A stretch of 59,210 nt of DNA from a virus (taxonomy: Duplodnaviria; Caudoviricetes): IMG/VR virus record IMGVR_UViG_3300030107_003333, positions 1 through 59,210 of that record; one strand, given 5' to 3'. Position numbers and translations under genes: made by a program. The notes below the pieces were generated by a model. The model did not search any database. It was not told the origin of the DNA and saw only the letters and a list, made by a program, of their open reading frames with translations. This document shows, piece by piece, positions 8,837 to 30,623 of this stretch (positions within the stretch are counted from its first letter, which is position 1; the number at the start of each line of letters is the position of its first letter).

Positions 8837-8837
8837 A

Positions 8838-9131: not shown

Positions 9132-9145
9132 ATTAATTAAAATAA

Positions 9146-9742
9146 ATGGAAACTTTACACTTGTTCGTTGTCGAGTTAGAAAAAAAGATCAACGACACTA
9201 TTAAAACCGATTCTGGTTTAGAGCTTTATGTAGATAATAGATTTAATGAATTTGAACATAGGGTTACTGAGGGGCCAGTAGTATGCTCCCCCCGTAAATA
9301 CAATACAGGAGTTAAAAAGGGTGATACTCTGTATTTTCATCATCTAGTTGTAATTAATGAGGGTCAAGCCTTAACTGGTTCTGATAATCATTATTTAATA
9401 AAATATGATGATAAGCACACCATAAACAATCAGGCTATTGCATATAAGTGTCAAGACACTGGAGAAATAAAACCTTTGGCAGGTTGGTCTCTATTAAAGC
9501 CAGTAGAACAGAAAGCTGAGGTTGTTTCTGATATTATAGAGGTAATCAACACAGAGGATGAAAAATTACCCACCAGAGCAGAAGTTGCTTTTGATGCACC
9601 TTGGTTAGAGGAGTTAGGTGTAAAAAAAGGGGACATCGTAGGGTTTAAAAAAAATAGAGACTACAGAATCAAAATAGACGGGTTTGAGTACTATCGAACT
9701 CGTGCAGAAGATTTAATGTATATAATTGAAGAAAATGTTTGA
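9146..9742 (+). CDS. GroES-like co-chaperonin, two tandem GroES-like units
   Basis: KTDSGLEL mobile-loop-like motif, GVKKGDTLYF, then IKPLAGWSLLKP and GVKKGDIVGF. Confidence 0.7.
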   Translation: METLHLFVVELEKKINDTIKTDSGLELYVDNRFNEFEHRVTEGPVVCSPRKYNTGVKKGDTLYFHHLVVINEGQALTGSDNHYLIKYDDKHTINNQAIAYKCQDTGEIKPLAGWSLLKPVEQKAEVVSDIIEVINTEDEKLPTRAEVAFDAPWLEELGVKKGDIVGFKKNRDYRIKIDGFEYYRTRAEDLMYIIEENV

Positions 9743-9995
9743 TAAAAAAGAACTGTGGTTGCATCTGGAGGATCATGAGTGTTTATTAGCCGACGGATTT
9801 AATAATGCCGTTATAGGTGTAACATTTGGAGTAGAGCCAAAAGCTGTATATAGTGTATCTAAATGTTTAGATATATTAGTAGAAGAAGGTATGAGCATGG
9901 AAGACGCTATCGAGCATTTTGAATACAACGTAGCTGGAAGCTATGTAGGAGAAAAAACACCTATATGGGTGTACGACTATCAAGAAGATGAGTAA
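9735..9995 (+). CDS. Conserved-looking phage hypothetical protein
   Basis: ADGFNNAVIG...EDAIEHFEYNVAGSYVGEKTP. Confidence 0.8.
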   Translation: MFDKKELWLHLEDHECLLADGFNNAVIGVTFGVEPKAVYSVSKCLDILVEEGMSMEDAIEHFEYNVAGSYVGEKTPIWVYDYQEDE

Positions 9996-10272
9996 GTTTA
10001 CTACTATATCTGCTTCTGAGCGCCTAATGAAAAGTATGGAAGCTGCTATAGACAATATGATAGAAGAGGTTAAAAAACCTGTTGATCCAGATATTAATGG
10101 TAGCGCTAGAAAAGCTGAACTTCAGTCTATTAAGCAGACTGCTACAGATTGTAAAGAGCTAATCATAGAAAGGCAGCGCTTAGAACAAATGGTTAAAGAT
10201 CTGAAAGCTAGTGGAGAAATAAACGAAGCTAAAGATTATACTGGAGGGTTCGCTGAAAGATTTTCTAAGTAA
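9988..10272 (+). CDS. Helical protein, candidate terminase small subunit
   Basis: 94 aa, helical/coiled-coil, upstream of terL; function by position only. Confidence 0.45.
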   Translation: MSKFTTISASERLMKSMEAAIDNMIEEVKKPVDPDINGSARKAELQSIKQTATDCKELIIERQRLEQMVKDLKASGEINEAKDYTGGFAERFSK

Positions 10273-10628
10273 TGGCTTATAAAGACGCTAAAGATCAAGC
10301 TGCAGCAGCAAAGCGTCACTACGAAGCCAACAAGCAAAAAGTTAAGGATCGTAGTAAAAAAAGAAATAGAAAACAAAGAAAAAGAAACAAAGAATACATA
10401 GCTTTTGTTAAAAGCTTGTTATCCTGTGTTGATTGTGGAGAGGACAATCCAGTTCTTTTAGAATTTGATCATGTTAGAGGAAAGAAGAAAGGTAATATAT
10501 CAGACATGGCTAATCAATCCTATTGTACAGAAACGATACAGAAAGAAATAGAGAAGTGTGAGCCACGCTGCGCTAACTGTCATAGAGCTATAACACATAA
10601 AAGAAGAAATATTCGTAACTTGCGGTAG
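10272..10628 (+). CDS. HNH endonuclease
   Basis: CVDC...EFDH...CANCH zinc/HNH pattern. Confidence 0.85.
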   Translation: MAYKDAKDQAAAAKRHYEANKQKVKDRSKKRNRKQRKRNKEYIAFVKSLLSCVDCGEDNPVLLEFDHVRGKKKGNISDMANQSYCTETIQKEIEKCEPRCANCHRAITHKRRNIRNLR

Positions 10629-10630
10629 CT

Positions 10631-10870
10631 ATGAAGGTAAAAAAAAGAAACTATAAAAAGGAATATAAAAAATTCCAATCTTCTAAAAAGCAGAAAAAAA
10701 GGAGAGCTGCTAGAAATAGACGTAGAAGAAGGCTTCTTAAAATGGGTTTGGTAAAAAAAGGAGATGGGAAAGACATACATCATAAAGGTGGTAAAGTAAC
10801 GGTAATGAAAGCCTCTAAGAATAGAGGGATGCGTGAAAAGTCTAGGCTAAAAGGATCTAAAAGAAAATAA
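10631..10870 (+). CDS. Highly basic, degenerate HNH-like protein
   Basis: RAARNRRRR...GDGKDIHH...SKNR. Confidence 0.6.
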   Translation: MKVKKRNYKKEYKKFQSSKKQKKRRAARNRRRRRLLKMGLVKKGDGKDIHHKGGKVTVMKASKNRGMREKSRLKGSKRK

Positions 10871-10871
10871 A

Positions 10872-11063
10872 TTGAATGAAATGGCTGAATATAAATGTGA
10901 ATGCTGTGAGCATGAAGTAGAGTGTACTGGAGTCGTAATTAGAATAATCGACGGTAAGGCTACTCACGATATTAAATGCCCTTGCGGAAAGTATATGAAG
11001 TTAGCAAATCCTAAAACAGGCATTGCTAGCTTTGGAAGTGATAGATATGGTAGGGTGCGTTGA
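10872..11063 (+). CDS. Zinc-ribbon protein (FmdB-like)
   Basis: YKCECC...KCPCG. Confidence 0.6.
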   Translation: MNEMAEYKCECCEHEVECTGVVIRIIDGKATHDIKCPCGKYMKLANPKTGIASFGSDRYGRVR

Positions 11064-13183
11064 GCGTTTTACTAAACATAGAAGAATATGACGAACCTGC
11101 TATCAAGATTTGTCCCAACGGTACGGAGGGTGAAATTATTGAACTCGGTGGGTTACTCATTTGCCTTCCAAAAAGGCCGAAGAAGAAAGACATTTTCGGA
11201 CATAAAGAATCAGACTCTATGCAAGTGTGGAGAAGGTTATCTATGCCGAAGGAATTGTCTCGTATTCGTTCTATGGATGAGTGGGCGGAAATGCCAAGGG
11301 AGTTCAGAGAGAGGTTTCGTCCATATATCGAGGAAGAGTTTAGGCGTAGGCGTGAGGGTTTTTGGTTTTATAACAACGGCACAGCTACATATATTACGGG
11401 GCGGCATTACATGATGCTTCAGTGGACCAAGTTAGATATTGGATACCCATACTTTCTTAACTTTCAGCGTGAAATCTTTCTACATATGGCTGCTTGCGAG
11501 GCTGATCCTCGCTGTATTGGTCAGCTTTATACTAAGTGCCGTCGTTCTGGGTACACCAATATATGTTCTTCTGTTCTTGTGGATGAAGCTACACAGGTTA
11601 AAGATAAGCTTATGGGGATACAGTCAAAGACAGGTAAGGACGCCCAAGAAAACATTTTTATGAAGAAGGTGGTTTATATGTTTAGAAACTACCCATTCTT
11701 CTTTAAACCTATACAAGACGGTACAACTAATCCACGTATGGAGCTAGCTTTTAGGGAGCCGTCAAAACGAATAACTAAAAACAATAAAACTTCTCAAACA
11801 GGAGAAGCACTTAATACTGTTATTAATTGGAAAAACACAACTAACAACGCATACGATGGTGAGAAGCTACACATATTGTATTTAGACGAAGCAGGAAAAT
11901 GGGAAAAACCAACAGACATAAGGGACGCATGGAGGATTCAGAGGACATGCTTAATAGTAGGAAGAAAAATTGTAGGAAAGGCCCTCGTAGGAAGCACAGT
12001 AAATCCAATGGACAAAGGTGGAAAAGAGTACAAGGAACTGTGGAGAGATTCAGATCCGACGGAGAGGAATGCGAATGGGAGGACTAGGACAGGTTTGTAT
12101 AGGCTGTTTATTCCAGCATATGAATCGCTAGAAGGTTTTTTTGATAAATACGGTAATCCAGTAATAGAAGACCCTTTAAAAGTTATAGATGGTTTAGATG
12201 GGGAAGATATTATTTTTGGAGCGAAAACATATTTAAAGAACGAAAGGCAAAGCTTAAAAGACGACCCTTCTGAATTAAATGAGGTAACAAGACAGTTTCC
12301 TTTTACAACTGACGAGGCTTTTAGAGATAGTATAGACGGTAGTTTGTTTAATATAGGTAGGATATATGAGCAAATACACCATAATGATGAGCTTTTTCCA
12401 AACCCTATAGTAATAGGTAATTTTGTGTGGAAGAATGGTGAAAAAGACACTGAAGTAGTTTTTAAGCCAGATGCAAAAGGTAGGTTTAAAATTGCTTGGA
12501 TGCCTCCGCCAGAGCTCAGAAATAAAAAGACATATGAAAGAGGTAAGCTTTTGCCAGCAAATGCAGAGCTAGGAGTAGGGGGAGTTGACTCCTATGATCT
12601 TGATGCTACTGTTGATGGTCGAGGATCTAAAGGAGCGCTACATCTTTATAATAAATTTCATATGGAGCACCCATCTAATATGTTTGTATTAGAGTATGCA
12701 TCCCGCCCGCCTCTAGCTAAAATATTTTATGAAGACGTTCTTATGGCTGCTGTGTTTTATGGATACTCTATTTTAATTGAAAACAATAAGTATGGTATTG
12801 CAAGGTACTTTGAATCAAGAGGTTATGATGGGTATTTAATGAATAGGCCGCCTCACCTTAATTCTTCTAGTTCTAGAGTTAATGTTAAAACTAAAGGAAT
12901 ACCTTCAAACTCTCAAGATATTATCCAAGCTCATGCTCATGCTATTGAAGCTTATATTCATAATCATGTAGGTATGCATAGAGAAACTGGTGATATTGGT
13001 AAGATGTATTTTAATGACACTTTAGAGGATTGGATTGGATTTAATATAAATAATAGAACTAAATTTGACCTTACTATAAGTTCTGGCTTAGCGCTCTTGG
13101 CTGCTCAAAAAAGTAAACCAAAAAAGAAGCAATCTAATTTTGCTGAAAAGAAATTCTTTAGGAGATATAAGCCCATATCTTAA
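11060..13183 (+). CDS. terL: Terminase large subunit
   Basis: KCRRSGYT Walker A-like, LYLDEAGK Walker B, GSTVN, GVDSYD RNaseH-fold Asp; directly before portal. Confidence 0.93.
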   Translation: MSVLLNIEEYDEPAIKICPNGTEGEIIELGGLLICLPKRPKKKDIFGHKESDSMQVWRRLSMPKELSRIRSMDEWAEMPREFRERFRPYIEEEFRRRREGFWFYNNGTATYITGRHYMMLQWTKLDIGYPYFLNFQREIFLHMAACEADPRCIGQLYTKCRRSGYTNICSSVLVDEATQVKDKLMGIQSKTGKDAQENIFMKKVVYMFRNYPFFFKPIQDGTTNPRMELAFREPSKRITKNNKTSQTGEALNTVINWKNTTNNAYDGEKLHILYLDEAGKWEKPTDIRDAWRIQRTCLIVGRKIVGKALVGSTVNPMDKGGKEYKELWRDSDPTERNANGRTRTGLYRLFIPAYESLEGFFDKYGNPVIEDPLKVIDGLDGEDIIFGAKTYLKNERQSLKDDPSELNEVTRQFPFTTDEAFRDSIDGSLFNIGRIYEQIHHNDELFPNPIVIGNFVWKNGEKDTEVVFKPDAKGRFKIAWMPPPELRNKKTYERGKLLPANAELGVGGVDSYDLDATVDGRGSKGALHLYNKFHMEHPSNMFVLEYASRPPLAKIFYEDVLMAAVFYGYSILIENNKYGIARYFESRGYDGYLMNRPPHLNSSSSRVNVKTKGIPSNSQDIIQAHAHAIEAYIHNHVGMHRETGDIGKMYFNDTLEDWIGFNINNRTKFDLTISSGLALLAAQKSKPKKKQSNFAEKKFFRRYKPIS

Positions 13184-13198
13184 AAACGTGTTATTTAG

Positions 13199-13206
13199 TA
13201 TATTTG
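13199..13206 (+). promoter_or_regulatory. Bacteroidota -7 element
   Basis: TATATTTG between terL and portal. Confidence 0.7.
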
Positions 13207-13224
13207 CACAAACACAATTCCCTG

Positions 13225-15690
13225 ATGTATAAAAGCGATAATAAAAGTTCAGGCAGCTTTCCAGACCCTTTAGCCCCTCAACATGTAAAAGAAAACAAAG
13301 CTTATGGACTGAAATACGCCAAAGCTATTGAATCTCAGTGGGGAAAAGTACAAGATGCAGGATCTTTATATAATAAAAGAAATAACATCTTTGAAAGAAA
13401 TAGGGATTATGCAAATGGAACTCAAGACACAAATCTATACAAGCAGATCTTAACAAACCTAGATCCTAATAGCGCTGATGGAAGCCTTGTAAATTTAGAT
13501 TATACTCCAGTTCCAATTCTCCCAAAGTTTGCTAGAATAGTAACGAATAAAATCCTTTCAAGAGAGCCGTACCCAAATTTAGAGGCAGTAGATCCTATAT
13601 CTTCTTCCGAAAAGAATAAGCAAAAACAAAGAATTAAAATTCAAGTTGAGCTTAAGGAGCAATTAATGCAGCTTAAAAAGGATACCAATGGGCTTGTTTT
13701 AGATCAAGATCCAGAGTCGTTGCCAGATACTTTAGAGGAAGCTGATATATTTCTAGACACTAATATTAAAACTGACGCTGAAATAGCTGCTCAGATAGGC
13801 ACAAATATGACTCTATCTTGGAATGATTTTAATGATGGTGTATATAGAAGGTGTGTAAATGACTTAGTTGCTTTAGGAATGTGTGTTGTTAGACGTACAA
13901 ATGATCCTAGCTATGGGATAAAGACAGATTATGTTGACCCATGTTCTTTTATACATAGTCAAACTGAAAACCCTAATTTTGATGATTTAGTTTATGCTGG
14001 ACATGTTAAAACCATAACTATTCAAGAATTAAAGCGTTTAGCTGGTGAATCTTTTACAGAAGAAGAATACAAAGAAATTGCTACTTCTGCAGCTAAATCT
14101 AAATCTCATGACACCTCTAAATTTTCAATGACTAAATATGACAATTCATTGAATAAAAATGTTTACGGGTATGATAATTATTCAGTAGAGTTATTGGACT
14201 TTGAGTTTATGTCTGTTGATTGTATGCATTTTGAAGAAAAAGAAAACAGATACGGTAACAGGAACTTCTTTTATGAAGGATTTAACTATAAAGAAAAAAC
14301 AGGTGGCGTTTTTGAGCGTAAGCCTCACAGGATGGATATAGTTACTGTCTACGGCGGTCTTTATATTTTAGGTACTAAGCATATATTTAACTACGGAATG
14401 AAAACAAATGTTCCGAGAAATATACATGATATAGGTAGAACACGTATGGGTTATTCTGTTGTTGCAACAAACTTCAGAAATATGATGCCTAAATCTATGG
14501 TTGATAGTTGTATTGGATTTGCCGATATGCTTCAGATAACCCACTTGAAAATTCAACAAGCTATAGCTAAAGCAAAGCCAGATGGGTTAATTATAGATAT
14601 TGAAGGCTTAGAGAATGTACAGCTTGGAAAGGGAGGTGAGCTTCAGCCATTAGAACTTCATGATATTTACGAACAAACTGGAGTGTTTTACTACAGGAGT
14701 AAAAACCCAGAAGGTGGTCATCAAAACCCGCCAATCAGAGAGATCGGAAATAGTATAAGAAACATTAACGAACTTATAGCTATATACAACCACTACTTAA
14801 GATTAATAAGAGATACAACAGGCATTAATGAGGCTATGGATGCTTCTACTCCTAAGGGAGATGCGTTAGTTGGTGTTCAGCAGCAAGCTATAGCAGCGGG
14901 CAATAACGCTATATATGACATCACTAATGCTGCTATGATTTTGTTCAAAAAGGTTTGTGAGGATGTTGTTAAGTGTTTGCAGATTATCCCGCCAGAGTCT
15001 GTCCTCATGGGGATATATCAAAATGCTATAGGTGAGTCTAACATGGAGGTTTTAACTTCTTTTAGCGATTTACCTATGTTTAATTTTGGTGTTTCTGTTC
15101 AGAAAGAAATGGAGGATTCTGAAAGGGCTTATCTTGAGCAAAATATCCAAATGGCTATTCAGCAACAGCAAATAGATTTAGAAGATGCTATAGCTATTAG
15201 AAACCTTAAAGATGTTAATCAAGCAGAAAGACTTCTTATTCTTCGACGTAAAAAGAGAATGGATATTGCGCAAGCTGTGGCTCGTCAAAACTCTCAACTG
15301 CAAGCTCAGCAAGCTCAGGAAGCAGCTCAAGCAGCCTCTCAAGCAAGACAGCAAGAGTTGCAAATGGAAGCTGAGTTAGAAGGACAAAAACTTCAGCTTA
15401 AATCTCAGTTAGAAGTACAAGTTGCTCAAGCTCGACATGAAATGCAAAAAGAAATAGAGATGATAAGAGCGCAGGCTACTTTAGGCTTTAAAACTGATGA
15501 CCAAGAATTTAAGGAAAAAATTGAAGTACTTAAAGAGGATAGGAAAGACTCTAGGGTTAAAAAACAATCTGCAGAACAGAGTAAGTTGATATCTCAAAGA
15601 AAAGGTCAACGTGGAGAAATAATTGAACCCATGCAGTTAGATGAACCTCAAGAATTAGATGAAACTGTTCAAAATATATTACAACAATAA
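13225..15690 (+). CDS. Portal protein
   Basis: ~820 aa after terL; PVPILPKF motif, Q-rich C-terminal coiled coil typical of podoviral portal barrels; ATG at 13225. Confidence 0.85.
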   Translation: MYKSDNKSSGSFPDPLAPQHVKENKAYGLKYAKAIESQWGKVQDAGSLYNKRNNIFERNRDYANGTQDTNLYKQILTNLDPNSADGSLVNLDYTPVPILPKFARIVTNKILSREPYPNLEAVDPISSSEKNKQKQRIKIQVELKEQLMQLKKDTNGLVLDQDPESLPDTLEEADIFLDTNIKTDAEIAAQIGTNMTLSWNDFNDGVYRRCVNDLVALGMCVVRRTNDPSYGIKTDYVDPCSFIHSQTENPNFDDLVYAGHVKTITIQELKRLAGESFTEEEYKEIATSAAKSKSHDTSKFSMTKYDNSLNKNVYGYDNYSVELLDFEFMSVDCMHFEEKENRYGNRNFFYEGFNYKEKTGGVFERKPHRMDIVTVYGGLYILGTKHIFNYGMKTNVPRNIHDIGRTRMGYSVVATNFRNMMPKSMVDSCIGFADMLQITHLKIQQAIAKAKPDGLIIDIEGLENVQLGKGGELQPLELHDIYEQTGVFYYRSKNPEGGHQNPPIREIGNSIRNINELIAIYNHYLRLIRDTTGINEAMDASTPKGDALVGVQQQAIAAGNNAIYDITNAAMILFKKVCEDVVKCLQIIPPESVLMGIYQNAIGESNMEVLTSFSDLPMFNFGVSVQKEMEDSERAYLEQNIQMAIQQQQIDLEDAIAIRNLKDVNQAERLLILRRKKRMDIAQAVARQNSQLQAQQAQEAAQAASQARQQELQMEAELEGQKLQLKSQLEVQVAQARHEMQKEIEMIRAQATLGFKTDDQEFKEKIEVLKEDRKDSRVKKQSAEQSKLISQRKGQRGEIIEPMQLDEPQELDETVQNILQQ

Positions 15691-16115: not shown

Positions 16116-17579
16116 ATGAGTGTAGACGTTACAACAACATCTGGAAATAGTGTTACTGCTACATCGACTGGTGGTACATCAGTTAGTTTTTCTTCTAGCT
16201 CAACTTCTGTTGCAGTAACGACTCCAACCTCATCTAGTATTACAGTAACAAGCAAAGGACCTAAAGGAGATACTGGGGCTACAGGTGCTACAGGGTCAAC
16301 AGGGGCGACGGGCGCTACGGGAGCTACAGCAACGGCGGGAGACGGAATAGATATTGCTGGCGGAGAAGTAAGCACTGATTTAAAATCTAATGGGGGGTTA
16401 GTTATAGAGTCTACAGAATTAGCTGTTGATTTAGGAGCATCATCTATTACGGGTACTTTAGCTGTTGGAGACGGAGGTACAGGAGCTACAACCCTTACAG
16501 ATAACGCTATTCTTACTGGTACTGGAACTAGTGCTATTACAGCTGAAGCTAATGCTAGTTATGACGGGAACGACTTTACATTAGCAAGCTCAACTTCTGC
16601 TAAACCAGTTTTAACTCTTTCGAATAGCAATACCGATGCTGTTAGTTCGGAAATTGTTTTTCAAAAAACAGCAACAGGAGCAGACAATGATGATGTTGGT
16701 AAGATAGACTTTAAGGGTGATAATGATAACAATGAGGTTACATCATTTGCCACCATTCTTGCGGAAATAGCAGATGCTAGTGATTCAGATGAGGCTGGCA
16801 GGTTGTCAATGACTGTTATGGCTAGTGACGGTAGTTTTAATCACTCACTTCCTGCTCACCAAGGTAGAAATGCATTTACTGCAACTGGCCATGGAACTAA
16901 TGATATTGTTGATGTAACTCTTGGATACGGCACTGCTTCAACAACTACGGTAGCTGGTACTCTTACCATGGGTTCGACGGCAGCAATGACTAACGCTGGT
17001 TTACTTTCTGTAGGGAATCAAACAAATATTACTGGTACAGGCGCTTTAAATGGTGGGAGTATAACTTCTGGTTTTGGCAATATAGATATAGGTTCTAGTA
17101 CGTTTGACACTACGGGCGATGTGAGCACAGGAGTAATTACCCCCACAGCTATTAAACATACTATTAGTGGTAATAACGCTGGTGATTACGGAACTGGTGC
17201 TGAAATACTATATGGCATAAGTAATGATAGCGTTACTGCTGGAGCCATATATGTTTTAAGATCTGGTGTATGGACAACAATAGATGCTGATGTTTCAAGT
17301 ATGGTTAGTCAATTAGTTGGTGTTGCAACAATAGCAGCAGGAAATGGAGACTCTTCAGACGGCATGATTATAAAAGGGAGTGTAACATTAGCTTCTGCAT
17401 ATACAGCAGGATCTGATGCTGAAGGAGCAATAGTATATGCCTCTGCGACGGCTGGAGAAGCTACACTTACAGCTCCTTCTTCTTCTGCTCAATTTGTGAG
17501 AATACTTGGATATTCCTTTAATGTAAGTAGCAAAAAAATGTTCCTTAATCCAGACAGCACGTTTGTAAAAATAGCGTAA
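16116..17579 (+). CDS. Fibre protein with short collagen-like segment
   Basis: GPKGDTGATGATGSTGATGATGAT, LAVGDGGTGA fibre motif, T/S/G-rich. Confidence 0.75.
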   Translation: MSVDVTTTSGNSVTATSTGGTSVSFSSSSTSVAVTTPTSSSITVTSKGPKGDTGATGATGSTGATGATGATATAGDGIDIAGGEVSTDLKSNGGLVIESTELAVDLGASSITGTLAVGDGGTGATTLTDNAILTGTGTSAITAEANASYDGNDFTLASSTSAKPVLTLSNSNTDAVSSEIVFQKTATGADNDDVGKIDFKGDNDNNEVTSFATILAEIADASDSDEAGRLSMTVMASDGSFNHSLPAHQGRNAFTATGHGTNDIVDVTLGYGTASTTTVAGTLTMGSTAAMTNAGLLSVGNQTNITGTGALNGGSITSGFGNIDIGSSTFDTTGDVSTGVITPTAIKHTISGNNAGDYGTGAEILYGISNDSVTAGAIYVLRSGVWTTIDADVSSMVSQLVGVATIAAGNGDSSDGMIIKGSVTLASAYTAGSDAEGAIVYASATAGEATLTAPSSSAQFVRILGYSFNVSSKKMFLNPDSTFVKIA

Positions 17580-18142
17580 TGGGTTATATAGACGAAACAT
17601 TAGTATTTGAGTCTGATAAAGTGTATTACACAGACGATTTTGGCACAGAGCTTCAAGTAATGATGACTTGGGAAGATCCTATCATGAAAGCTTCCGCTGA
17701 TTACGTTTGTGAAGGAGGTGGAGATATATTAGAAATAGGATTTGGCATGGGTATATCTGCAGATTACATTCAAGCTAATTCTATATCGTCTCATACCATA
17801 GTAGAGAACCACCCTCAAATGATTGAAAAAGCTAAAGCTTGGGCTGCTGATAAACCTAACGTAACTATAGTAGAGGGAGATTGGTATACTGTAAAAGATT
17901 CTTTATCTACTTACGATGGAGTGTTTTATGATACTTGGGGGGATGACAATGCTTTGAAATTTGTAAGTGAAGCCCCTAATTTTACGAAATCGGGGACAAG
18001 AGTTACGTGGTGGAATAATTATACAGACACAGATGATGTTTTGTACATAAATGGAACTACGTATCAATCTATAAGTGTAAACCCAGATAGTAATATGTAT
18101 TTTCAATCTAATACATATCACCTTCCTAAAAAACAGTTTTAA
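17579..18142 (+). CDS. SAM-dependent methyltransferase, Rmt2/guanidinoacetate N-methyltransferase-like
   Basis: VMMTWEDPIM, ILEIGFGMGIS (motif I), HTIVENHP, YDGVFYDTW. Confidence 0.85.
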   Translation: MGYIDETLVFESDKVYYTDDFGTELQVMMTWEDPIMKASADYVCEGGGDILEIGFGMGISADYIQANSISSHTIVENHPQMIEKAKAWAADKPNVTIVEGDWYTVKDSLSTYDGVFYDTWGDDNALKFVSEAPNFTKSGTRVTWWNNYTDTDDVLYINGTTYQSISVNPDSNMYFQSNTYHLPKKQF

Positions 18143-18855
18143 TGCCAGTTGTAAATACTGATAGCGGTGACGGATGGATCTCTTCTAATGCGCAGTCTTC
18201 GTGGGCAGCTGCAAGAGACATTACGTCTGGGGGGACACCTGATACAAACGACCTCCAATTTAACGGCGCTACTACTGCTATTAAGAGCGGTAGTCGAGGA
18301 GGTGGTAGTAATTATTATGTAACACGCACGTTTATGTATTTTGACACCTCTGGTATTACAGGAACAGTAGCTAGTGCCACTATAAAAGTAAGAGGATATC
18401 AGCAAAATGGTGGCAGTGTTATCGCTGTAAAAAGCACAGCGTTTGGTGGTGATGGAGGAACTGCTTTGGCTTCTGGCGATATAGACGCTATTGTTGGGTG
18501 GACAACTGGGGCTTCTGCTGCTGGAAATGTTACGGATTACAGCTCTCAAATAACTAGTGGATGGAGTATTTCTGCTTATAATGATTTAGCTAGCACTAGT
18601 GATTTAAGGGCTGACATGAAAAATAATGATGCTGTTATAATTTGCTTTATGAATTACACTTACGATTATCTAAATGTAGAACCAAGCAATTACCATAGGA
18701 TTGGTTTTCAATTCACGAACAATGTAGCGTCGAGGCCATACATAGACTACACTTTGGCGGGTTATGGAAATGATGTTATTGGAGTATCTAGTGCTAACAT
18801 AGATGGAGTTATAGGGGTGGCAACAGCCAATATAGACAAAATAATAGGAGTTTAA
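18142..18855 (+). CDS. Probable virion beta-sandwich protein
   Basis: RTFMYFDTSGI...VASATIK pattern; C-terminal VIGVxxANI repeats. Confidence 0.6.
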   Translation: MPVVNTDSGDGWISSNAQSSWAAARDITSGGTPDTNDLQFNGATTAIKSGSRGGGSNYYVTRTFMYFDTSGITGTVASATIKVRGYQQNGGSVIAVKSTAFGGDGGTALASGDIDAIVGWTTGASAAGNVTDYSSQITSGWSISAYNDLASTSDLRADMKNNDAVIICFMNYTYDYLNVEPSNYHRIGFQFTNNVASRPYIDYTLAGYGNDVIGVSSANIDGVIGVATANIDKIIGV

Positions 18856-18861
18856 ATAAAC

Positions 18862-18869
18862 TATATTTG
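18862..18869 (+). promoter_or_regulatory. Bacteroidota -7 element
   Basis: TATATTTG 4 nt before ATG 18874. Confidence 0.75.
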
Positions 18870-18873
18870 CAAT

Positions 18874-21090
18874 ATGAAAAAGATATCACTTATTTTATTT
18901 TTAATAATACCTTCTATTTTGTTTGCTCAGCCAGACGATGCAAGCTGGTTAAATGTAACGATACAAACAGATAACTATGGGGGAGAATCATCGTGGGAGA
19001 TAATAAACTTCGACGGTAATACTGTAGCTACAAATCCGCCGCTTCAGAACAATACATTAACAAACACAATGGTTTTTCTGCCTGCTGGAGACTACAGTTT
19101 TATAATGTATGATTCGTTTGGTGATGGTATATGCTGTTCCTTTGGTCAAGGTTTTTTTGGTATTACGAACACTTGCGGTTTAGAAGAGTTTAATTATGAG
19201 TTTGATTCAGCTATAGATACTATACCTTTTACATTGACACCTTGTATGCCTCTACTACTTGGCTGTATGAACGAAGCTGCAGATAATTACAATCCATGGG
19301 CCAATCAAGATGATGGTAGCTGCGAGGTTGTAGAGTGCGATTCGCTTGAAACGCTTGTGTCTATGGATTTAACTCTTGATACTTGGCCTAGTGAAACTGG
19401 TTTTACTTTAGTTGATATAGCTACTGGTCAACCTTATCACCAAGTACTACCTTTAGAATTTGATTTTGGAGATCAGCTTGTTACATACACATATGACTTT
19501 TGTGTTGCTTTAGGGTTTGAGTTAATTTTAACAGACGAGTATGGAGACGGCCTTAACGGTTCTGCTTCAGGGGGGGAAGATGGAGCTTGTGTTATAACTG
19601 CTTGCGATAGTGTTATATGGGAATTAGAGGACTTAGCATTTACGGAATTTGATGATGGAAACACAATGTACTCTGGAGCTATTTTTACAGAGCCTTGCCC
19701 GCCCGTGCCGCCCGTTGTTGGGTGTATGGATGATGACTATGTAGACTACAACCCTCTTGCCGAAGTCCAAGATACTTGCATGACATTACACACATGGGGT
19801 TGCACAGACCCAGAAGCTATGAACTATGATAGCACTGCAACAATAAACGACTTAAACGGCCCTTGCAGCATACAGATTATCTTAGAAGATGACGCTGGTG
19901 ATGGCTGGGGTATGTCTGGGATAGGTGTAATTCAAGGAGATCAACAATGGTTATTTACTGTAGGCCCTAATCAGTTTTCACAATCTTGGGATATTATGCT
20001 GGATTCTGATGAGGAGGTTGATATATATTACTTTCAAGGTGGAGGGCAACAGTCATCTGCACAAGAACTAGCTTTTCAAACATTACACAACTCTGTATAT
20101 GCTATCAATCAAGCTGGAGACACTTTACTGTCTGAAGGATCTAATCCTTTCCTAAATAACGGCCAAGGGGCTTTGCAGCCATTTAGTGCACCAAATTGGC
20201 ACACGTATAGTTTTACCCCTTATTGTGGAGACAGTTGCATCCCCTATATATATGGGTGCACAGACTCAGCAGCCTGCAACTATGACGCAGAGGCTAATAC
20301 AAATTTTGACTGTAATTACCCTGTTCAATACTATGATTGTAATAATAGCTGCGTGAATGACTCTGACGGCGATGGTGTATGTGATGAGTTAGAAGTACTA
20401 GGTTGTCAAGATCCAACCGCATTTAATTACAACGCATTGGCTACTGATGCTGGAGAGTGCATACCAGTAATATTTGGCTGCACAGACCCAACACAATTTA
20501 ATTACGATCCAGAAGCTAATACAGAAAATCAAAGCTGTATTCCTTTTATATATGGTTGCATGGACCCATTAGCTTTGAATTATGACCCTAACGCTAACAC
20601 TGATAATGAATCTTGCATTGAAGTAATAGTTGATTGCATGGACCCTACTGCAGTGAATTACAATGAGTTAGCAAACACTCCTGACAACAGTACTTGTTTG
20701 TATGATGCTGGGTGTATTGGCGAGGCGGGTGATCCATATTATTTAAATGACTCATGCTATGCTTGGATTATAGATATTGATCCGTACTGTTGTGAAGTCG
20801 CTTGGGATGGAGCTTGTGTTGAATTGTATGATTATTGTCAAGCTGGATGGCCTACTGATATATACGATATACACGATATATATAATGTATATCCTAACCC
20901 AGTTGAGAATATTTTAAACATACAAACGTCTTTAGATGTAACTACAGAAATTTATAACTCTTTTGGACAGCTCGTAGTTTCAGCAACTAGAGAAAAGCGA
21001 ATTAACCTTCAACACCTTTCTAAAGGTTTGTATCATGTTGTTATAAAAAATAACGATAGGACTTCAATTAAAAAAATAATTAAATCATGA
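18874..21090 (+). CDS. Secreted Cys-rich repeat protein with T9SS type A C-terminal sorting domain
   Basis: Signal peptide MKKISLILFLIIPSILFA|Q; multiple GC(T/M)DxxAxNYxxxA repeats; CTD VYPNPV...IYNSFGQLV...LSKGLYHVVI...KKIIKS. Confidence 0.9.
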   Translation: MKKISLILFLIIPSILFAQPDDASWLNVTIQTDNYGGESSWEIINFDGNTVATNPPLQNNTLTNTMVFLPAGDYSFIMYDSFGDGICCSFGQGFFGITNTCGLEEFNYEFDSAIDTIPFTLTPCMPLLLGCMNEAADNYNPWANQDDGSCEVVECDSLETLVSMDLTLDTWPSETGFTLVDIATGQPYHQVLPLEFDFGDQLVTYTYDFCVALGFELILTDEYGDGLNGSASGGEDGACVITACDSVIWELEDLAFTEFDDGNTMYSGAIFTEPCPPVPPVVGCMDDDYVDYNPLAEVQDTCMTLHTWGCTDPEAMNYDSTATINDLNGPCSIQIILEDDAGDGWGMSGIGVIQGDQQWLFTVGPNQFSQSWDIMLDSDEEVDIYYFQGGGQQSSAQELAFQTLHNSVYAINQAGDTLLSEGSNPFLNNGQGALQPFSAPNWHTYSFTPYCGDSCIPYIYGCTDSAACNYDAEANTNFDCNYPVQYYDCNNSCVNDSDGDGVCDELEVLGCQDPTAFNYNALATDAGECIPVIFGCTDPTQFNYDPEANTENQSCIPFIYGCMDPLALNYDPNANTDNESCIEVIVDCMDPTAVNYNELANTPDNSTCLYDAGCIGEAGDPYYLNDSCYAWIIDIDPYCCEVAWDGACVELYDYCQAGWPTDIYDIHDIYNVYPNPVENILNIQTSLDVTTEIYNSFGQLVVSATREKRINLQHLSKGLYHVVIKNNDRTSIKKIIKS

Positions 21091-21284
21091 GTTATAAAAC
21101 AAATAAAACGACTAAGAAACGAATAGACAGCCTATTGAGTAAAAATGCTAGCTATCAAGCCGCTAATGTTTGCGTCACAAACAGTAAGACAAAGAGGCAA
21201 GAAATTAATAGATACTGTCGTGTTAACTTTGTAAATCCCATTAAGGATATAGATAAAAATTTTTATGATCAAATAATTTTATAA
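21087..21284 (+). CDS. Small basic hypothetical protein
   Basis: 65 aa, ATGA overlap with previous stop. Confidence 0.65.
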   Translation: MSYKTNKTTKKRIDSLLSKNASYQAANVCVTNSKTKRQEINRYCRVNFVNPIKDIDKNFYDQIIL

Positions 21285-21286
21285 TA

Positions 21287-21436
21287 ATGAAAATAGATTG
21301 GATAAACAGCTGGAATGCTGGCAACAAGAAAGAAGTATACGAGCTTTCATTTAGACTTGGTACTATTACTGTTTTAGAAATAAGTTTTGGTAAATCATTT
21401 AGATTTATGGTATTGAATTTCGGATTCGAAGTGTGA
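21287..21436 (+). CDS. Small hypothetical protein (not in ORF track)
   Basis: Hand translation: MKIDWINSWNAGNKKEVYELSFRLGTITVLEISFGKSFRFMVLNFGFEV; fills the gap exactly. Confidence 0.6.
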   Translation: MKIDWINSWNAGNKKEVYELSFRLGTITVLEISFGKSFRFMVLNFGFEV

Positions 21437-22506
21437 TGACAGAAAAAAAGGATTTAACTTCAGTTGTATATGCTCTAATAATGTTAGGGGTGTTTCTTCT
21501 TGCAACATTTACAGCTAATGGACAAACTGTAAAAAAGACGTTTAAGTTTGCTACATTCTATACGGCGTTTAGTGGAGGTAACTCCATAGCTGATGATAAC
21601 ATATACTCTGTGACTAATGGGTTGCAAACTGATGTATTAGAAACTCCTTTTGATTATTCATTTACAGCTGGTGTACGTAAAATTGCTAGATTCGGATACG
21701 AGAACCGAGCTAATGTATTCTATGACGGAACAGAGAAATCATACAGTGACGCAGCCACTATTGGTAAAGTAAAAGGATTTGAATTTTTATTTGAAGCCGA
21801 TTGGCGTAGACAGCAAGGTAGGAACTTTGTTGATCAGGATTATTTCTTGCGTTATGTAGCAAAAAACTGGATAGCTAAGGTTGAGTATCTACAAGATGGC
21901 TTTGCTGACGTAGAATATTTTGAAGGCTCTCAGAGATTAAGACTTAATGCAAATGACCACCTTAGTTTTAACATCGGAGTGGCTCAACGTATATCTGAGC
22001 CTTATGGATATAATCCTTTAGAAGAGTGGGTGTTGTCAAACAATAATATACATTACACAAGTCTCGCTATACAAGAAGGTTACACTATAGATGTGCAAGC
22101 AGGTGAATATTTTTCTCCAGACGGCGAGCTTGTAGCTAATAGTGTTGATGTATGGGAGCAGGTTGTTATACCTGAAGTTATTGATGATTATGTAGCTAAG
22201 AAAAGAAATGAGCTACCTAATGTATGGAACTATTCTGTAGTTGTTGGGTACGACTACTATAAATATTCCAAAGAATTTTGGATGCACAACTGGGTAAGTG
22301 TAATGCCTTATCACCTTAAGACAGATGACGAATATTCTTATTTCGAAACCACGGAAGGAGGCCAATGGTTGGATTACGGCGCAGGCCTTATCTTTGGTTG
22401 GAGATTAAATAAGAGTCTTGGTGTATTCTTAGAGGGTAAGTACAATAAGTACTGGAATCGAGAATGGCACGATTTCTCTGTCGGACTAAACTATGTAATA
22501 TTGTAA
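21433..22506 (+). CDS. Predicted outer-membrane beta-barrel protein
   Basis: Hydrophobic leader ending TANG|Q; aromatic-rich amphipathic strands (YGAGLIFGWRL, LGVFLEGKY, DFSVGLNY near C-terminus). Confidence 0.6.
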   Translation: MMTEKKDLTSVVYALIMLGVFLLATFTANGQTVKKTFKFATFYTAFSGGNSIADDNIYSVTNGLQTDVLETPFDYSFTAGVRKIARFGYENRANVFYDGTEKSYSDAATIGKVKGFEFLFEADWRRQQGRNFVDQDYFLRYVAKNWIAKVEYLQDGFADVEYFEGSQRLRLNANDHLSFNIGVAQRISEPYGYNPLEEWVLSNNNIHYTSLAIQEGYTIDVQAGEYFSPDGELVANSVDVWEQVVIPEVIDDYVAKKRNELPNVWNYSVVVGYDYYKYSKEFWMHNWVSVMPYHLKTDDEYSYFETTEGGQWLDYGAGLIFGWRLNKSLGVFLEGKYNKYWNREWHDFSVGLNYVIL

Positions 22507-22790
22507 TGGCACAACAAATTGGAGAAGATACTAAAGTAACATTTGACCTAAAGACAATAGGGTTGGGTGTAGCAGGGCTAGCAGCCCTAATAGGAATGTG
22601 GTTTACGCTACAAGCTGATATAGCAGAAGCAAAAGAGTTGCCAGAGCCATTGCCGTCAGAGGTCACACGTATGGAGTTTGATATGAAAGACCAATTAATC
22701 CGACAGACTATTATGACTACGCAAGAAGATGTATCAGAGCTTAAAGAAGACCTAGACCGCATCGAAGAAAAAATAGATAAACTTCAATAA
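22506..22790 (+). CDS. Single-pass membrane protein with C-terminal coiled coil
   Basis: Start MAQQ (TAATG overlap); IGLGVAGLAALIGMWF TM; VSELKEDLDRIEEKIDKL heptads. Confidence 0.75.
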   Translation: MAQQIGEDTKVTFDLKTIGLGVAGLAALIGMWFTLQADIAEAKELPEPLPSEVTRMEFDMKDQLIRQTIMTTQEDVSELKEDLDRIEEKIDKLQ

Positions 22791-23128
22791 TGAAACATTT
22801 AATTTACATATGTTTATTTGCAATGACATCTCTTGGTATGACTATACCAGATTCGGGGGTATGCGTCGTTGAGTTTAACGCAAGTTTTAACTCATCAAAT
22901 AGTGTTGATTGGATTGATGAGTTGAGTGATTGCAAAGGGAAGAGGGTTGATATACTTACTAATCCTGAATTACAAAAAGAACATAAAATTGTAGTAGTAC
23001 CTACTGTTATTGTATTTAACGATGGGGAAGAGGTGGAGAGATTTCAGGCGAATATTATGATGCAACTTGAGGCAACGAAAGATGAGGTTCAAGAAGCGGT
23101 AGACGAAATTATAATGAGTGCGTTTTAA
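22790..23128 (+). CDS. Exported thioredoxin-fold protein lacking CxxC
   Basis: Hydrophobic leader; VVEFNASFN in place of DFxAxWC; VVVPTVIVFNDGEEVERF thioredoxin C-half. Confidence 0.75.
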   Translation: MKHLIYICLFAMTSLGMTIPDSGVCVVEFNASFNSSNSVDWIDELSDCKGKRVDILTNPELQKEHKIVVVPTVIVFNDGEEVERFQANIMMQLEATKDEVQEAVDEIIMSAF

Positions 23129-23412
23129 TGCCTAAGGTAAAAAAAGATCCAAGATTAAAAAGGGCTGGTGTATCTGGATATAATAAACCAAAGCGTACTC
23201 CTAACCATCCAACAAAGTCGCATGTTGTTGTAGCTAAGGTTGGAGATATAATTAAGCTGATTAGATTTGGACAGCAGGGTGTAACTACTGCGGGTAAAAA
23301 GAAAGATGCAAGATCTAAAGCTAGGCGTAAGTCATTTAAGGCTCGTCATGCAAAAAATATAGCTAAGGGTAAAATGAGCGCTGCGTACTGGGCTAATAAA
23401 GTAAAGTGGTAA
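23128..23412 (+). CDS. Basic protein (DUF5754/DUF6321-like)
   Basis: LIRFGQQG...RRKSFKARH...SAAYWANKVKW. Confidence 0.7.
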   Translation: MPKVKKDPRLKRAGVSGYNKPKRTPNHPTKSHVVVAKVGDIIKLIRFGQQGVTTAGKKKDARSKARRKSFKARHAKNIAKGKMSAAYWANKVKW

Positions 23413-23603
23413 TGAAAACTATTAAGTATAAAAAAGGAGGTAAGTTAAAAATATCCAACAAAAAAGTTTCCGTGGACCCGCCTGAAGGTTATCACTGGAT
23501 GGAAGAAGCGGGTCGTTATTATTTAATGGCTGGTGATTACAAACCTCATGCAGGCGCAGTAAAAAAAGCTAATTTTAAAACAGCTTCACATCCTAAAGGA
23601 TAA
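23412..23603 (+). CDS. Small basic protein
   Basis: YKKGGKL, PPEGYHWM motifs. Confidence 0.7.
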   Translation: MKTIKYKKGGKLKISNKKVSVDPPEGYHWMEEAGRYYLMAGDYKPHAGAVKKANFKTASHPKG

Positions 23604-23749
23604 TGAAAGTAAATAAAAAATATTTAAAAGGTAGTAAGAACGCTAAACGTAGAGAACAGCTTATAAAAAAAATTGCTGCTATATATAAAAAAGGTAAACC
23701 ATACCCAAAGAACTTAGATGCTTTAATGAAAGAAAGAGACTCGCTATGA
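23603..23749 (+). CDS. Small basic protein (not in ORF track)
   Basis: Hand translation MKVNKKYLKGSKNAKRREQLIKKIAAIYKKGKPYPKNLDALMKERDSL; overlaps stop/start on both sides. Confidence 0.65.
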   Translation: MKVNKKYLKGSKNAKRREQLIKKIAAIYKKGKPYPKNLDALMKERDSL

Positions 23750-23973
23750 AAATGCTTAAAAAAGGAGGTAAAACTAAAGGCAAAGGCTATGCCAGTCTTG
23801 ACTCCGCACAAAAACAAGTGTATAAACGAGGCCTTGCTGCTTATATGAGTGCTGGAAGTAGACCTAAAGTGTCTCAACACGCATGGGCTATGGCTCGTGT
23901 TAAAAGTGCCTTTGGTAAAAGAGAGGCTGCTAAGATTAGAGCTGGTAAGGATAAAAAAACTAAAAAGAAATAA
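23746..23973 (+). CDS. Basic protein (DUF5824-like)
   Basis: QVYKRGLAAY..GSRP....AWAMARVKS. Confidence 0.7.
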   Translation: MKMLKKGGKTKGKGYASLDSAQKQVYKRGLAAYMSAGSRPKVSQHAWAMARVKSAFGKREAAKIRAGKDKKTKKK

Positions 23974-23977
23974 TCAC

Positions 23978-23985
23978 TATATTTG
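23978..23985 (+). promoter_or_regulatory. Bacteroidota -7 element
   Basis: TATATTTG upstream of head operon. Confidence 0.7.
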
Positions 23986-24005
23986 CAAGTAAATAACTAT
24001 TCAAA

Positions 24006-28318: not shown

Positions 28319-28340
28319 TATATCTTATATTGCAACAAAG

Positions 28341-28363
28341 AAAGGGGCTTCGGCCCCTTTTTT
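28341..28363 (+). terminator. Intrinsic terminator
   Basis: AAAGGGGC-TTCG-GCCCCTTT plus T-run. Confidence 0.92.
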
Positions 28364-28372
28364 ATTTCTTTG

Positions 28373-28380
28373 TATATTTG
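28373..28380 (+). promoter_or_regulatory. Bacteroidota -7 element
   Basis: TATATTTG right after terminator. Confidence 0.7.
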
Positions 28381-29697: not shown

Positions 29698-30576
29698 ATG
29701 GAAAAAACAAAAACAAGAAGGGCTACTGAAAGTCCTAAAGCAACAAAGGTTGAAGAACCTGTTGTAGTTCAGGAAACAGTAATTGTAGAACCTCAGGTTA
29801 AAGAAGAGCCTAAATCTCATTCTAAACCTAAAAAAAGAACTATAAAAAGGCAAGAAAAAGAAGTTTTTCATTGTGAGTTTGAAATCATTAAAGGCGGGGG
29901 TATAGCATATATGCTACCTCAAAAAGGAGTAACTGTTTATGACTCTGATAAGGATACAATTAGAGAGATTAGGTATTGTCCTAATGAACCCTCTATTTAT
30001 GTAGATGAACAATCTGACAATGCCTTAAAACAATCCGTTACTTTTAGAGATGCTAAGTTGTTTGTATCAAAAGAACAGCCTAATCTTAGAAAGTTTATGG
30101 AAATGCATCCAGCAAATCAAGCAAATGGTGGAACTACCTTTAGAAAGGTCGATAAAAGAAAAGATGCAGAACTAGAACTTGAAAGGGAGTTTTTACTTAC
30201 TGATGCTGTTTCTATAGTTAGAGACAGAGATATTAATGACTTGCTTCCTTTGGCTATATACTTTGGTATTAATATAAACGCTCCTGTTTCAGATATTAGG
30301 TACAACCTTTTAAGGATTGCAAAATCTAAAACAAAAGAGTTTTTACAGTCTTTAGACTCGCCGCAGGTTTCGTGCAGGTCTACTATTCAACAAGCAAAAG
30401 ACTATCAAATATTAAATATGAAATCTAATGGGGTTTATTGGTTTGATTCAAATCAACTAATTATCTCAGTTCCAGTAGGTCAAGACCCTATAGATACTAT
30501 GGTTCGATTCTGCTTAACTGAAAAAGGAGCCTCCGCCCTTGCTTTGATAGAAGAAAGGTTAGATAAATTAGCTTAA
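29698..30576 (+). CDS. Hypothetical protein of head-tail region
   Basis: 292 aa; REIRYCPNEPSIYVDEQ. Confidence 0.8.
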   Translation: MEKTKTRRATESPKATKVEEPVVVQETVIVEPQVKEEPKSHSKPKKRTIKRQEKEVFHCEFEIIKGGGIAYMLPQKGVTVYDSDKDTIREIRYCPNEPSIYVDEQSDNALKQSVTFRDAKLFVSKEQPNLRKFMEMHPANQANGGTTFRKVDKRKDAELELEREFLLTDAVSIVRDRDINDLLPLAIYFGININAPVSDIRYNLLRIAKSKTKEFLQSLDSPQVSCRSTIQQAKDYQILNMKSNGVYWFDSNQLIISVPVGQDPIDTMVRFCLTEKGASALALIEERLDKLA

Positions 30577-30579
30577 CAG

Positions 30580-30604
30580 AAAGGCCCCAAAAGGGGCCTT
30601 TTTT
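30580..30604 (+). terminator. Intrinsic terminator
   Basis: AAGGCCCC-AAAA-GGGGCCTT plus T-run. Confidence 0.9.
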
Positions 30605-30611
30605 CTTTTTG

Positions 30612-30619
30612 TATATTTG
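30612..30619 (+). promoter_or_regulatory. Bacteroidota -7 element
   Basis: TATATTTG 4 nt before ATG 30624. Confidence 0.75.
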
Positions 30620-30623
30620 TAAT

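Follow-up and report, generated by a model that had tools for sequence, protein, structure and literature searches.

To our knowledge, how phages of the Bacteroidota pass the outer membrane (OM) is largely unknown. Two-component spanins, such as Rz/Rz1 of lambda, consist of a small N-in/C-out inner-membrane coiled-coil protein and a small OM lipoprotein, and Cor and Llp are further phage OM proteins that change the cell surface. The subject of this analysis is a gene cassette at positions 18874-23128 of an uncultured marine phage genome, IMG/VR virus record IMGVR_UViG_3300030107_003333, the whole of which (59,210 bases, 96% complete according to CheckV) was analysed and is referred to here as the window. 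The cassette encodes a predicted type IX secretion system (T9SS) cargo protein, a predicted OM beta-barrel, a membrane protein with one transmembrane (TM) helix and a coiled coil (TM-coil) and an exported thioredoxin-fold protein (Trx), and is best read as a mobile, phage-borne envelope module, not as part of the virion. Its probable effect, late in infection, is to remodel or breach the OM of the host.

Phage genes for T9SS cargos with a type A C-terminal domain (CTD) have been described in the passages on ‘Cryophage’ (Bellas et al. 2020, PMC7468147), where they are highly variable between near-identical variants and where a hijack of the host T9SS was proposed, possibly with consequences for competition or superinfection. 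Cryophage and the cassette have in common a type A sorting-domain gene that varies among close phages; the Cryophage cargos are an endoglucanase, a GH39 protein and a PA14 protein, whereas the window cargo has no enzymatic character and is tied to its three constant partners, and the same passages make no mention of an accompanying barrel, TM-coil, Trx or lysis linkage. For Flavobacterium johnsoniae, the relevant parts of PMC12618676 describe cognate substrate–shuttle gene pairs, with type B CTDs served by PorP/SprF-like barrels and type A by PorV; as in those pairs, in which the shuttle decides the destination of the substrate, a CTD protein gene here adjoins an OM barrel gene, but the pair is phage-borne, the CTD is type A and the barrel is neither PorP/SprF nor PorV by sequence. 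Phage OM barrels, including lambda Lom and 1,603 OM proteins (OMPs) of huge phages, are treated in a preprint (10.64898/2026.10.24.761521), sections of which propose receptor masking or superinfection exclusion and cite Lom as blocking LamB. Lom is an 8-stranded Ail/Lom protein, in contrast to the window barrel with its ~14 strands, lack of a Pfam family and three constant partners, and the phages bearing the cassette include ~60-kb genomes besides huge ones, unlike the preprint's OMP set; T9SS and spanins have 0 occurrences each in its text (supplementary tables aside), and T9SS is not mentioned in a P. gingivalis phage paper (PMC10367356). The first-pass annotation of the window, made by a model from the letters alone, knew of no characterised equivalent: phage T9SS cargo and phage barrels had in fact been published in these sources, while a four-part lysis-linked cassette was not found in the texts searched, the supplementary tables of PMC8776804 and of the OMP preprint excepted.

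The six + strand open reading frames (ORFs) from which that annotation had assembled the cassette are all present, running head to tail and abutting or overlapping (Table 1), and four of the products bear the envelope signals ascribed to them: a cargo with a T9SS type A CTD, a predicted OM barrel, a TM-coil and an exported thioredoxin fold. Their predicted destinations span the inner membrane, periplasm, OM and cell surface.

The cassette is abundant, to judge by relatives of the barrel, which occur on 464 IMG/VR contigs, as 327 representatives in a library clustered at 50% identity and in 3,593 clusters of proteins at 90% identity; of the 120 clusters listed, 0 have a name or a Pfam family. 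Gene content was compared across the best 80 barrel loci, which are closer relatives and include many near-duplicates, with presence scored by tblastn at E<=1e-4. The co-occurrence on which the first-pass proposal depended was borne out (Table 1): the loci without cargo (L055, L071 and L080) lack flank on one side, seven of the ten loci without TM-coil end within 360 nt of the barrel, and three (L063, L070 and L071) are truly devoid of TM-coil and Trx despite at least 9.9 kb of downstream flank. Cargo and barrel form the constant core, TM-coil and Trx are nearly always attached, and the two small ORFs between cargo and barrel are inconstant. Gene order is fixed in most loci, with overlapping cargo and barrel start and stop codons in many relatives; the cargo lies mostly upstream of the barrel/TM-coil/Trx trio, but L039 and L073 have it downstream and L065 has it on both sides. 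Median identities are 47% (cargo), 81% (barrel), 77% (TM-coil) and 72% (Trx). At positions 5093-15083, L065 has two cargo-type genes (1,501 aa and 774 aa), one on either side of the barrel, TM-coil and Trx; the cassette there also includes two g24006-like genes, and the end of the second cargo gene is overlapped by a holin-like gene.

Mobility is evident from comparison of backbones. In relatives that share the backbone of the window (replication genes 67-89% and holin 81-93% identical), the cassette from cargo through Trx stands directly after the holin, at a site corresponding to the empty junction 49268-49450 of the window, and the small basic genes at 23128-23973 remain with the head genes. 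Relocation without these genes fixes the boundaries of the cassette at the coordinates first proposed (18862-23128). Of its six genes, the ORFs at 21087 and 21287 are not constant members. The cassette also occurs in company with a terminase only ~21% identical (L056, L062, L064 and L069), where barrel, TM-coil and Trx are still 63-69% identical; on a 113.6-kb contig (L063); and in a 165.6-kb, 98%-complete record without the phrog_3427 holin (L074). It moves as a unit across phage backbones of ~60 to 165 kb, which is a new observation.

The cargo contains 37 Cys and is strongly acidic (114 D+E against 11 K+R). Its signal peptide, MKKISLILFLIIPSILFA/Q (the slash marking cleavage), is a hydrophobic 19-mer (residues 1-19) read from the sequence, not by a dedicated predictor. 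The type A CTD reported in the first pass for this Cys-rich protein scores above the cut-offs of both PF18962 Por_Secre_tail (residues 672-736, E=3.5e-14, 53.3 bits against 27) and TIGR04183 (46.8 bits against 23), and its modelled fold matches the CTD of NucA (8glk_D; TMt 0.75, 30% identity, probability 1.00) and also that of RgpB (7pq4) in Foldseek searches. By sequence and predicted fold the protein has the features of a type A T9SS substrate, and the host T9SS would be its route of export. The AlphaFold2 (AF2) model (pLDDT 72.6; pTM 0.28, a low value being expected for beads on a string) comprises three beta-sandwiches, Cys-bounded CxDxxAxNY repeats, a small helical domain and the CTD; the structural neighbours that Foldseek returned, with very low TM-scores, are arrays of C2, FN3 and SGBP type. 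Foldseek found no enzyme fold in the model, and the cargo was rejected as a lytic enzyme on that ground.

Cargo homologues, as printed for the loci, have a signal-like segment wherever the N-terminus is intact and a CTD-like tail at the end; the best tblastn match reaches the CTD end in 73 of the 77 cargo loci, and the other four are of the L073 type, whose ORF also has a CTD-like tail. The N-terminal part is unalignable in 42 of the 77; four of these 42 are cut by the locus end, and 11 are close relatives (barrel 87-91% identical) in which the head is replaced while residues ~280 or 453 to 729 are kept. The alignments thus depict the cargo as a constant C-terminal stalk and CTD with a swap-prone N-terminal head; surface and receptor-facing proteins typically combine an unchanging anchor with a variable head, a pattern that supports display at the cell surface. 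Many cargo relatives carry the precomputed Pfam family PF26780.1, which was not reported for the window cargo at E<=0.1.

The barrel, listed in the first pass from 21433 and starting probably at the ATG at 21436, has a signal peptide ending ...TANG/Q, and its call as a beta-barrel is upheld by modelling. The AF2 model (pLDDT 77.7, pTM 0.74, from a 32-sequence alignment) has ~14 strands by DSSP, strand number and closure not having been read from the model coordinates, and all top 50 Foldseek matches in the PDB are membrane barrels, including NanC, KdgM, BamA, FapF and OmpG. Their low TM-scores (0.3-0.5) mean that the match is one of fold class, not of family. Alternating hydrophobicity (dyad) is seen in strands 74-83, 115-127, 177-188, 314-324 and 343-354, the nearest named Atlas clusters shown are all barrels, and Phage_OMP appears solely as a language-model neighbour (0.94). 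No family in Pfam, PHROG or NCBIfam matched the barrel, none of 32 family members had a Pfam hit at E<=0.1 (32/32), and a profile search of PDB sequences returned nothing at E<=10; Ail/Lom PF06316 and Phage_OMP PF24653 were likewise unmatched at E<=0.1, assuming both models to be in the Pfam copy searched. The protein is therefore predicted to be an OM barrel by fold alone. Its proposed role as a PorV-type shuttle found no support, there being no specific kinship to PorV or PorP/SprF; a 367-residue PorV-like chain of the T9SS complex 8gl6 ranks tenth among the Foldseek matches (E=2e-3, TMq 0.32), which is generic barrel likeness.

The TM-coil fits its original description, with an amended start: the ATG at 22506, giving 94 aa, is preferred to a start at 22464, giving 108 aa, because all 16 aligned relatives (16/16) are 94 aa long without indels and many lack the upstream extension. 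Mean column identity in this alignment is 78%. An N-in/C-out topology is predicted from the sequence, as is a coiled coil in a periplasmic part of ~57 residues, and the start codon overlaps the barrel stop by 1 nt, an arrangement that points to translational coupling of the two genes. PHROG hits are weak (E ~1e-3), a profile search of the PDB gave only chance coiled-coil matches (E>1), the Atlas search gave no named neighbour above 0.88 (DUF2730 at 0.83 being a lead only), and scans of Pfam, PHROG and NCBIfam returned no spanin family.

The Trx likewise has the CxxC-less thioredoxin fold first assigned to it. Its profile matches 199 thioredoxin-like PDB sequences at E<=1 (best E=1.2e-7), with a gap over WCGPC, and the single sequence scores 19.5 bits against Pfam Thioredoxin (PF00085), under the cut-off of 23.5. 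The 57 distinct homologues from 67 loci have a signal-like N-terminal segment (SPI-type, many without Cys) and an invariant C-terminal Phe and, as in the window, none has a CxxC, so that the Trx was rejected as a disulfide or redox folding catalyst, and the folding aid of the first pass is not supported in that sense. The protein shares the fold profile and cis-Pro box of classical thioredoxins; unlike them it has its CxxC site deleted, carries a signal peptide and an invariant C-terminal Phe, and is not a redox enzyme. A complex prediction with barrel residues 31-357, Trx 18-112 and TM-coil 34-94 scored 0.01 against a mark of 0.32 and is uninformative either way. In a collection of 50,697 phage records, which may omit the window's own record or near relatives, tblastn found one short match for the cargo, none for the barrel or TM-coil, and weak matches of the Trx to Streptomyces-phage thioredoxins.

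Two settings account for most of the loci. The portal lies upstream of the cassette, as in the window, in 43 of the 80, and a lysis-type gene lies within 4 kb in 29, 24 of them within 1 kb; the remaining eight have <700 nt of upstream flank (seven) or 30 nt of downstream flank (one). The lysis-linked loci fall into ~9 arrangement types by the author's own grouping, and the lysis-type neighbours belong to several families unrelated to one another. In 10 loci (L019, L030-L032, L038, L041, L048, L062, L065 and L069) the cargo gene is abutted or overlapped by a phrog_3427 holin, with an overlap of ~4 nt in L038, L041, L048, L062, L065 and L069, and in L057-L059 this holin lies 110-707 nt upstream of it. 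A peptidoglycan-binding and amidase endolysin is the neighbour in L066, L068, L072 and L074, accompanied in the last two by a holin-like gene of phrog_199 (four-TM in L074); a phrog_822 amidase (E=2.5e-51) in L056 and L064; a 71-aa two-TM protein with a phrog_33083-like endolysin in L073 and L077-L079; and, in L062 and L069, a DUF5675 homologue that follows the cassette at a distance of 1.3-1.8 kb downstream. For DUF5675, a C82-peptidase-like lysin fold is among the proposals of a 2026 preprint.

The interpretation tentatively preferred, with somewhat less than even confidence, is that the cassette is a late-made surface-display module whose cargo is held on a cognate phage barrel. Domains, targeting signals, predicted folds, co-occurrence, mobility and genomic settings are shown by the analysis; secretion, anchoring, timing and biological pay-off we infer as follows. 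Late in infection, the cargo would cross the inner membrane via Sec, fold and form disulfides in the periplasm and, by virtue of its type A CTD, leave through the host T9SS, whereupon the phage barrel would retain it at the cell surface; the inner-membrane coiled-coil protein and the redox-dead periplasmic Trx would act as conserved assembly or coupling helpers. The infected cell and lysis debris would be coated with a phage-chosen binding protein, and this coat may mask receptors or otherwise alter the surface, so that other phages would be excluded or progeny shielded from re-adsorption. Display is favoured by the anatomy of the cassette, because the cargo has a stalk and variable head and Sec/T9SS export signals, the barrel is adjacent, and the cargo–barrel pair persists without the two small proteins in L063, L070 and L071; exit-stage timing would explain the lysis-gene neighbourhood. 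Parallels for such a module are the substrate–shuttle gene pairs of F. johnsoniae, the variable T9SS cargos of Cryophage and, for exclusion by a phage OMP, Lom.

Several observations weigh against display. Host PorV recognises all type A CTDs (PMC12618676), so that a phage barrel would be unneeded for secretion, and the barrel falls outside the sequence families of both T9SS shuttle types (PF11751 for PorP/SprF; FadL-like PorV). The TM-coil and Trx, the most conserved of the small proteins, are left without a real job, and a comparison with the tail proteins of this phage showed no resemblance to the cargo. Lysis-type genes stand no more than 4 kb away in every non-portal locus with enough flank (29/29), and the L074 cassette has a small holin-like gene on one side and the endolysin on the other.

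These last points favour a spanin-analogue device for breaching the OM, the close rival of display, and the OM lysis device that the first-pass annotation had offered as an alternative receives far more support from them than was given there, holins and endolysins of several families adjoining the cassette. It is possible, if on balance unlikely, that the TM-coil serves as i-spanin, the barrel replaces the o-spanin lipoprotein and the Trx is a periplasmic adaptor; the complex would then disrupt the OM once holin and endolysin had acted, a step held with similar doubt, and the cargo may, just as tentatively, be a surface-side partner or open or weaken the OM through the T9SS translocon. Lysis is favoured by context, because the judgeable non-portal loci lie beside lysis genes of mutually unrelated kinds, the TM-coil resembles an i-spanin in its predicted architecture and overlaps the barrel by 1 nt, and there is no other spanin candidate: no lipobox ORF was found in the 96%-complete window, whose exported and membrane proteins are those of the cassette and the holin, plus a few short hydrophobic ORFs, most of which are likely spurious. 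The high identity of barrel, TM-coil and Trx in phages with a divergent terminase counts on the same side, as does the annotation of spanins in just two of the cultured flavophages surveyed by PMC8776804. The proposed likeness to spanins lies in the predicted N-in/C-out TM-coil with its periplasmic coiled coil, the OM partner and the position beside holin or endolysin in relatives.

The differences from spanins are equally concrete. The OM partner is a 356-aa barrel, there are an extra Trx and cargo, and no sequence relationship was found; the o-spanin features of lipobox and embedded gene are missing, and the periplasmic part of the TM-coil is short. The cargo, larger and more constant than any other partner, is a variable, non-enzymatic T9SS surface protein, useless to a spanin and left without a job if the cassette is for lysis, and cargo and barrel occur without TM-coil and Trx in the three loci named above. 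The window cassette lies outside the lysis cassette, with the holin 26 kb off, and in the window and 43 loci it is far from the holin and behind its own promoter-like motif. Late-operon ends, the home of lysis genes, are common insertion sites of accessory genes.

Another reading, rather improbable, is that of two co-travelling units, a barrel/TM-coil/Trx unit for lysis or the envelope and an independent T9SS cargo ‘moron’, lodged in the same hot spot. The cargo does evolve differently from the trio, as its lower median identity indicates, its N-terminus is swapped among close relatives, its position varies, and two unrelated small ORFs separate it from the barrel in the window. Against this, the cargo is present in 77 of the 80 loci, the three misses being short of flank, its linkage has outlasted both relocation in one backbone and movement among backbones that range from ~60 to 165 kb, its start or stop codon overlaps that of the barrel in many relatives, and its C-terminal half is conserved along with the barrel.

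A host-fitness module, in which the barrel would be a porin or uptake channel and the cargo a secreted or surface binding protein for nutrients, particles or algal surfaces or for grazing avoidance, with a boost to the infected cell in place of exclusion or lysis, is quite improbable. The generic barrel fold with its porin-like top matches (NanC, KdgM and OmpG) and the C2, CBM and SGBP-like neighbours of the cargo are compatible with it, and the nutrient-related contexts of huge-phage OMPs in the OMP preprint offer a parallel. Both contexts of the cassette are nevertheless late operons, structural or lysis, and neither early nor metabolic; Pfam and NCBIfam scans gave no transporter, TonB-box or enzyme family; and long-term host benefit is unlikely because a scan of 10 replication-side proteins turned up no integrase.

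That the products are ordinary proteins of the virion or its assembly, as the position of the cassette between portal and head genes inside the structural block of the window would suggest, is very improbable, since three cleavable signal peptides, one TM anchor, one T9SS CTD and one membrane barrel mean that the products are not assembled in the cytoplasm, the cassette follows the holin instead in same-backbone relatives, and no PHROG structural family was matched.

If surface display is true, phages use the host T9SS with an anchor of their own to redecorate the infected cell, and the swap-prone cargo head may track the specificity of hosts or competitors. If the cassette is instead a lysis device, it would be a new mechanism that supplies the missing OM step for a large group of marine Bacteroidota phages, and the first to employ a barrel anchor and a host secretion system, as a new class of spanin analogue. 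Either reading makes the four genes a concrete experimental target in genetically tractable flavobacteria.

Table 1. Positions of the cassette genes and other features in the window, with the number of the 80 barrel loci in which cassette genes were found
Feature	Position	Strand	Loci (of 80)	Description
Promoter-like motif AAATAAACTATATTTG	18854..18869	+		One of four AAATAA-N2-5-TATATTTG copies; putative function
Cargo, 738 aa	18874..21090	+	77	Sec signal, three beta-sandwiches, CxDxxAxNY Cys repeats, type A CTD (residues 672-737)
Small basic ORF, 65 aa	21087..21284	+	19	No export signal
Small ORF, 49 aa	21287..21436	+	45	Conserved termini, no export signal
Predicted OM beta-barrel, 356 aa	21436..22506	+		Signal peptide, ~14 strands, helical insert residues 189-263
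TM-coil membrane protein, 94 aa	22506..22790	+	70	One TM helix (~residues 17-37), Pro-rich linker, C-terminal amphipathic heptad helix
Exported thioredoxin-fold protein, 112 aa	22790..23128	+	67	No CxxC; invariant FNA, cis-Pro box IVVVPT, C-terminal Phe
DUF5675 protein, candidate endolysin	6953-7471	+		PF18925 E=1.4e-25; not adjacent to cassette in window
Staphylococcal-nuclease homologue	7482-7841			
GroES-like co-chaperonin	9146-9742			
HNH endonuclease	10272-10628			Ahead of terminase
Large terminase	11060-13183			
Portal	13204-15690			
Collagen-repeat fibre-like protein	16116-17579			Upstream of cassette
Small methyltransferase	17579-18142			Upstream of cassette
DNRLRE/CBM96-like protein	18142-18855			Upstream of cassette
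Very basic protein, 94 aa	23128-23412			Next after cassette; phrog_7595, E=2.7e-39
Head and virion protein genes	from ~24 kb			
Holin-like protein, 145 aa	48831-49268	+		Two C-terminal TM segments; phrog_3427 ‘holin’ E=4.7e-23
I-HmuI/NUMOD-type homing endonuclease	56620-57291			
Replication block		minus		

Where the first-pass annotation placed a promoter before the cargo gene, the analysis shows a recurring promoter-like motif. The octamer TATATTTG at 18862-18869, whose end is 4 nt upstream of the cargo ATG, is enriched in the window (14 copies against 5.6 expected; 14 reached in 0/100 shuffles), and the longer motif AAATAA-N2-5-TATATTTG, defined post hoc once the sites had been seen, has 4 copies against 0.02 expected (3908-3924, 18854-18869, 23968-23985 and 49263-49281), each with a stop codon before it and a + strand gene block after it. 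This motif is probably the phage's own promoter type, and the spacing of only 4 nt between motif and ATG upstream of both 3929 and 18874 suggests near-leaderless mRNAs. The pattern TAnnTTTG, which we take to be a loose form of the Bacteroidota -7 element, is at background in the window (76 against 71.6 expected), as is a generic sigma-70 scan (36 against 32.7); of 42 distinct relatives, 8 retain a TA..TTTG 4 nt upstream of the cargo ATG. No terminator was found at the 23128 end of the unit, where the Trx stop overlaps the start of the following gene; a promoter-like motif next occurs at 23968. At ~28335-28380 and 30575-30620, gene ends are followed by two strong GC hairpins with T-runs, with TTGTATATTTG directly 3' of each; these sites look like terminator–promoter junctions within the structural block, and the TTG starts listed at 28370 and 30609 are probably not real starts.

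The small ORFs of the cassette differ in behaviour. The 65-aa ORF is 85-89% identical in some relatives and lies on the opposite strand, kilobases off beside replication genes, in L019 and L057-L059; it behaves as an inconstant, small mobile passenger gene. The 49-aa ORF has in many relatives a CPCPxC...C insert, a possible zinc knuckle, and is the sole small gene that stays beside the barrel, downstream of it, in L063, L070 and L071, where TM-coil and Trx are missing. On the minus strand at 22388-22762, a 124-aa antisense ORF has apparent homologues in many loci; it was rejected as a gene, being a by-product of the strongly conserved + strand TM-coil coding sequence.

The near-complete phage genome is distant kin of flavobacterial podoviruses. 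Its portal has relatives in 87 of the 50,697 phage records, all below 60% identity, and the host is probably a marine member of the Flavobacteriaceae, because the phage hosts in 86 of these 87 records are Flavobacterium (68), Cellulophaga (15), Tenacibaculum (2) and Maribacter (1), the 87th record being an unassigned member of the Caudoviricetes; this kinship fits a T9SS-bearing host. A scan of genome contigs found no cellular homologue and matched just 3 contigs of metagenome-assembled genomes, labelled Parvibaculum, Nitrosopelagicus and Rickettsiales, which probably represent viral contigs binned in error. A search for sequencing runs listed marine DNA and no RNA.

From one relative to the next, the stretch that separates portal and cassette changes in both length and gene content, as a plasticity zone would; collagen-like and carbohydrate-binding-like genes occur in it in the window, L016 and L024-L025. 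Downstream of the cassette, the gene at 23128-23412 shares 68-74% DNA identity with genes from phages of Roseobacter, Celeribacter and Lentibacter and from cyanophage KBS-S-2A, the sole stretch of 18000-24000 to match cultured phages, and three further small basic ORFs follow it up to 23973. The holin label of 48831-49268 is suggested by the PHROG name and by homologues that adjoin an endolysin or M15 peptidase in two phage records. Directly past this gene, at 49302-49454, lies a ~50-aa ORF with a Cys-rich C-terminus and its own promoter-like motif upstream, and a coding stretch resembling it is found between holin and cargo gene in L057 and L059.

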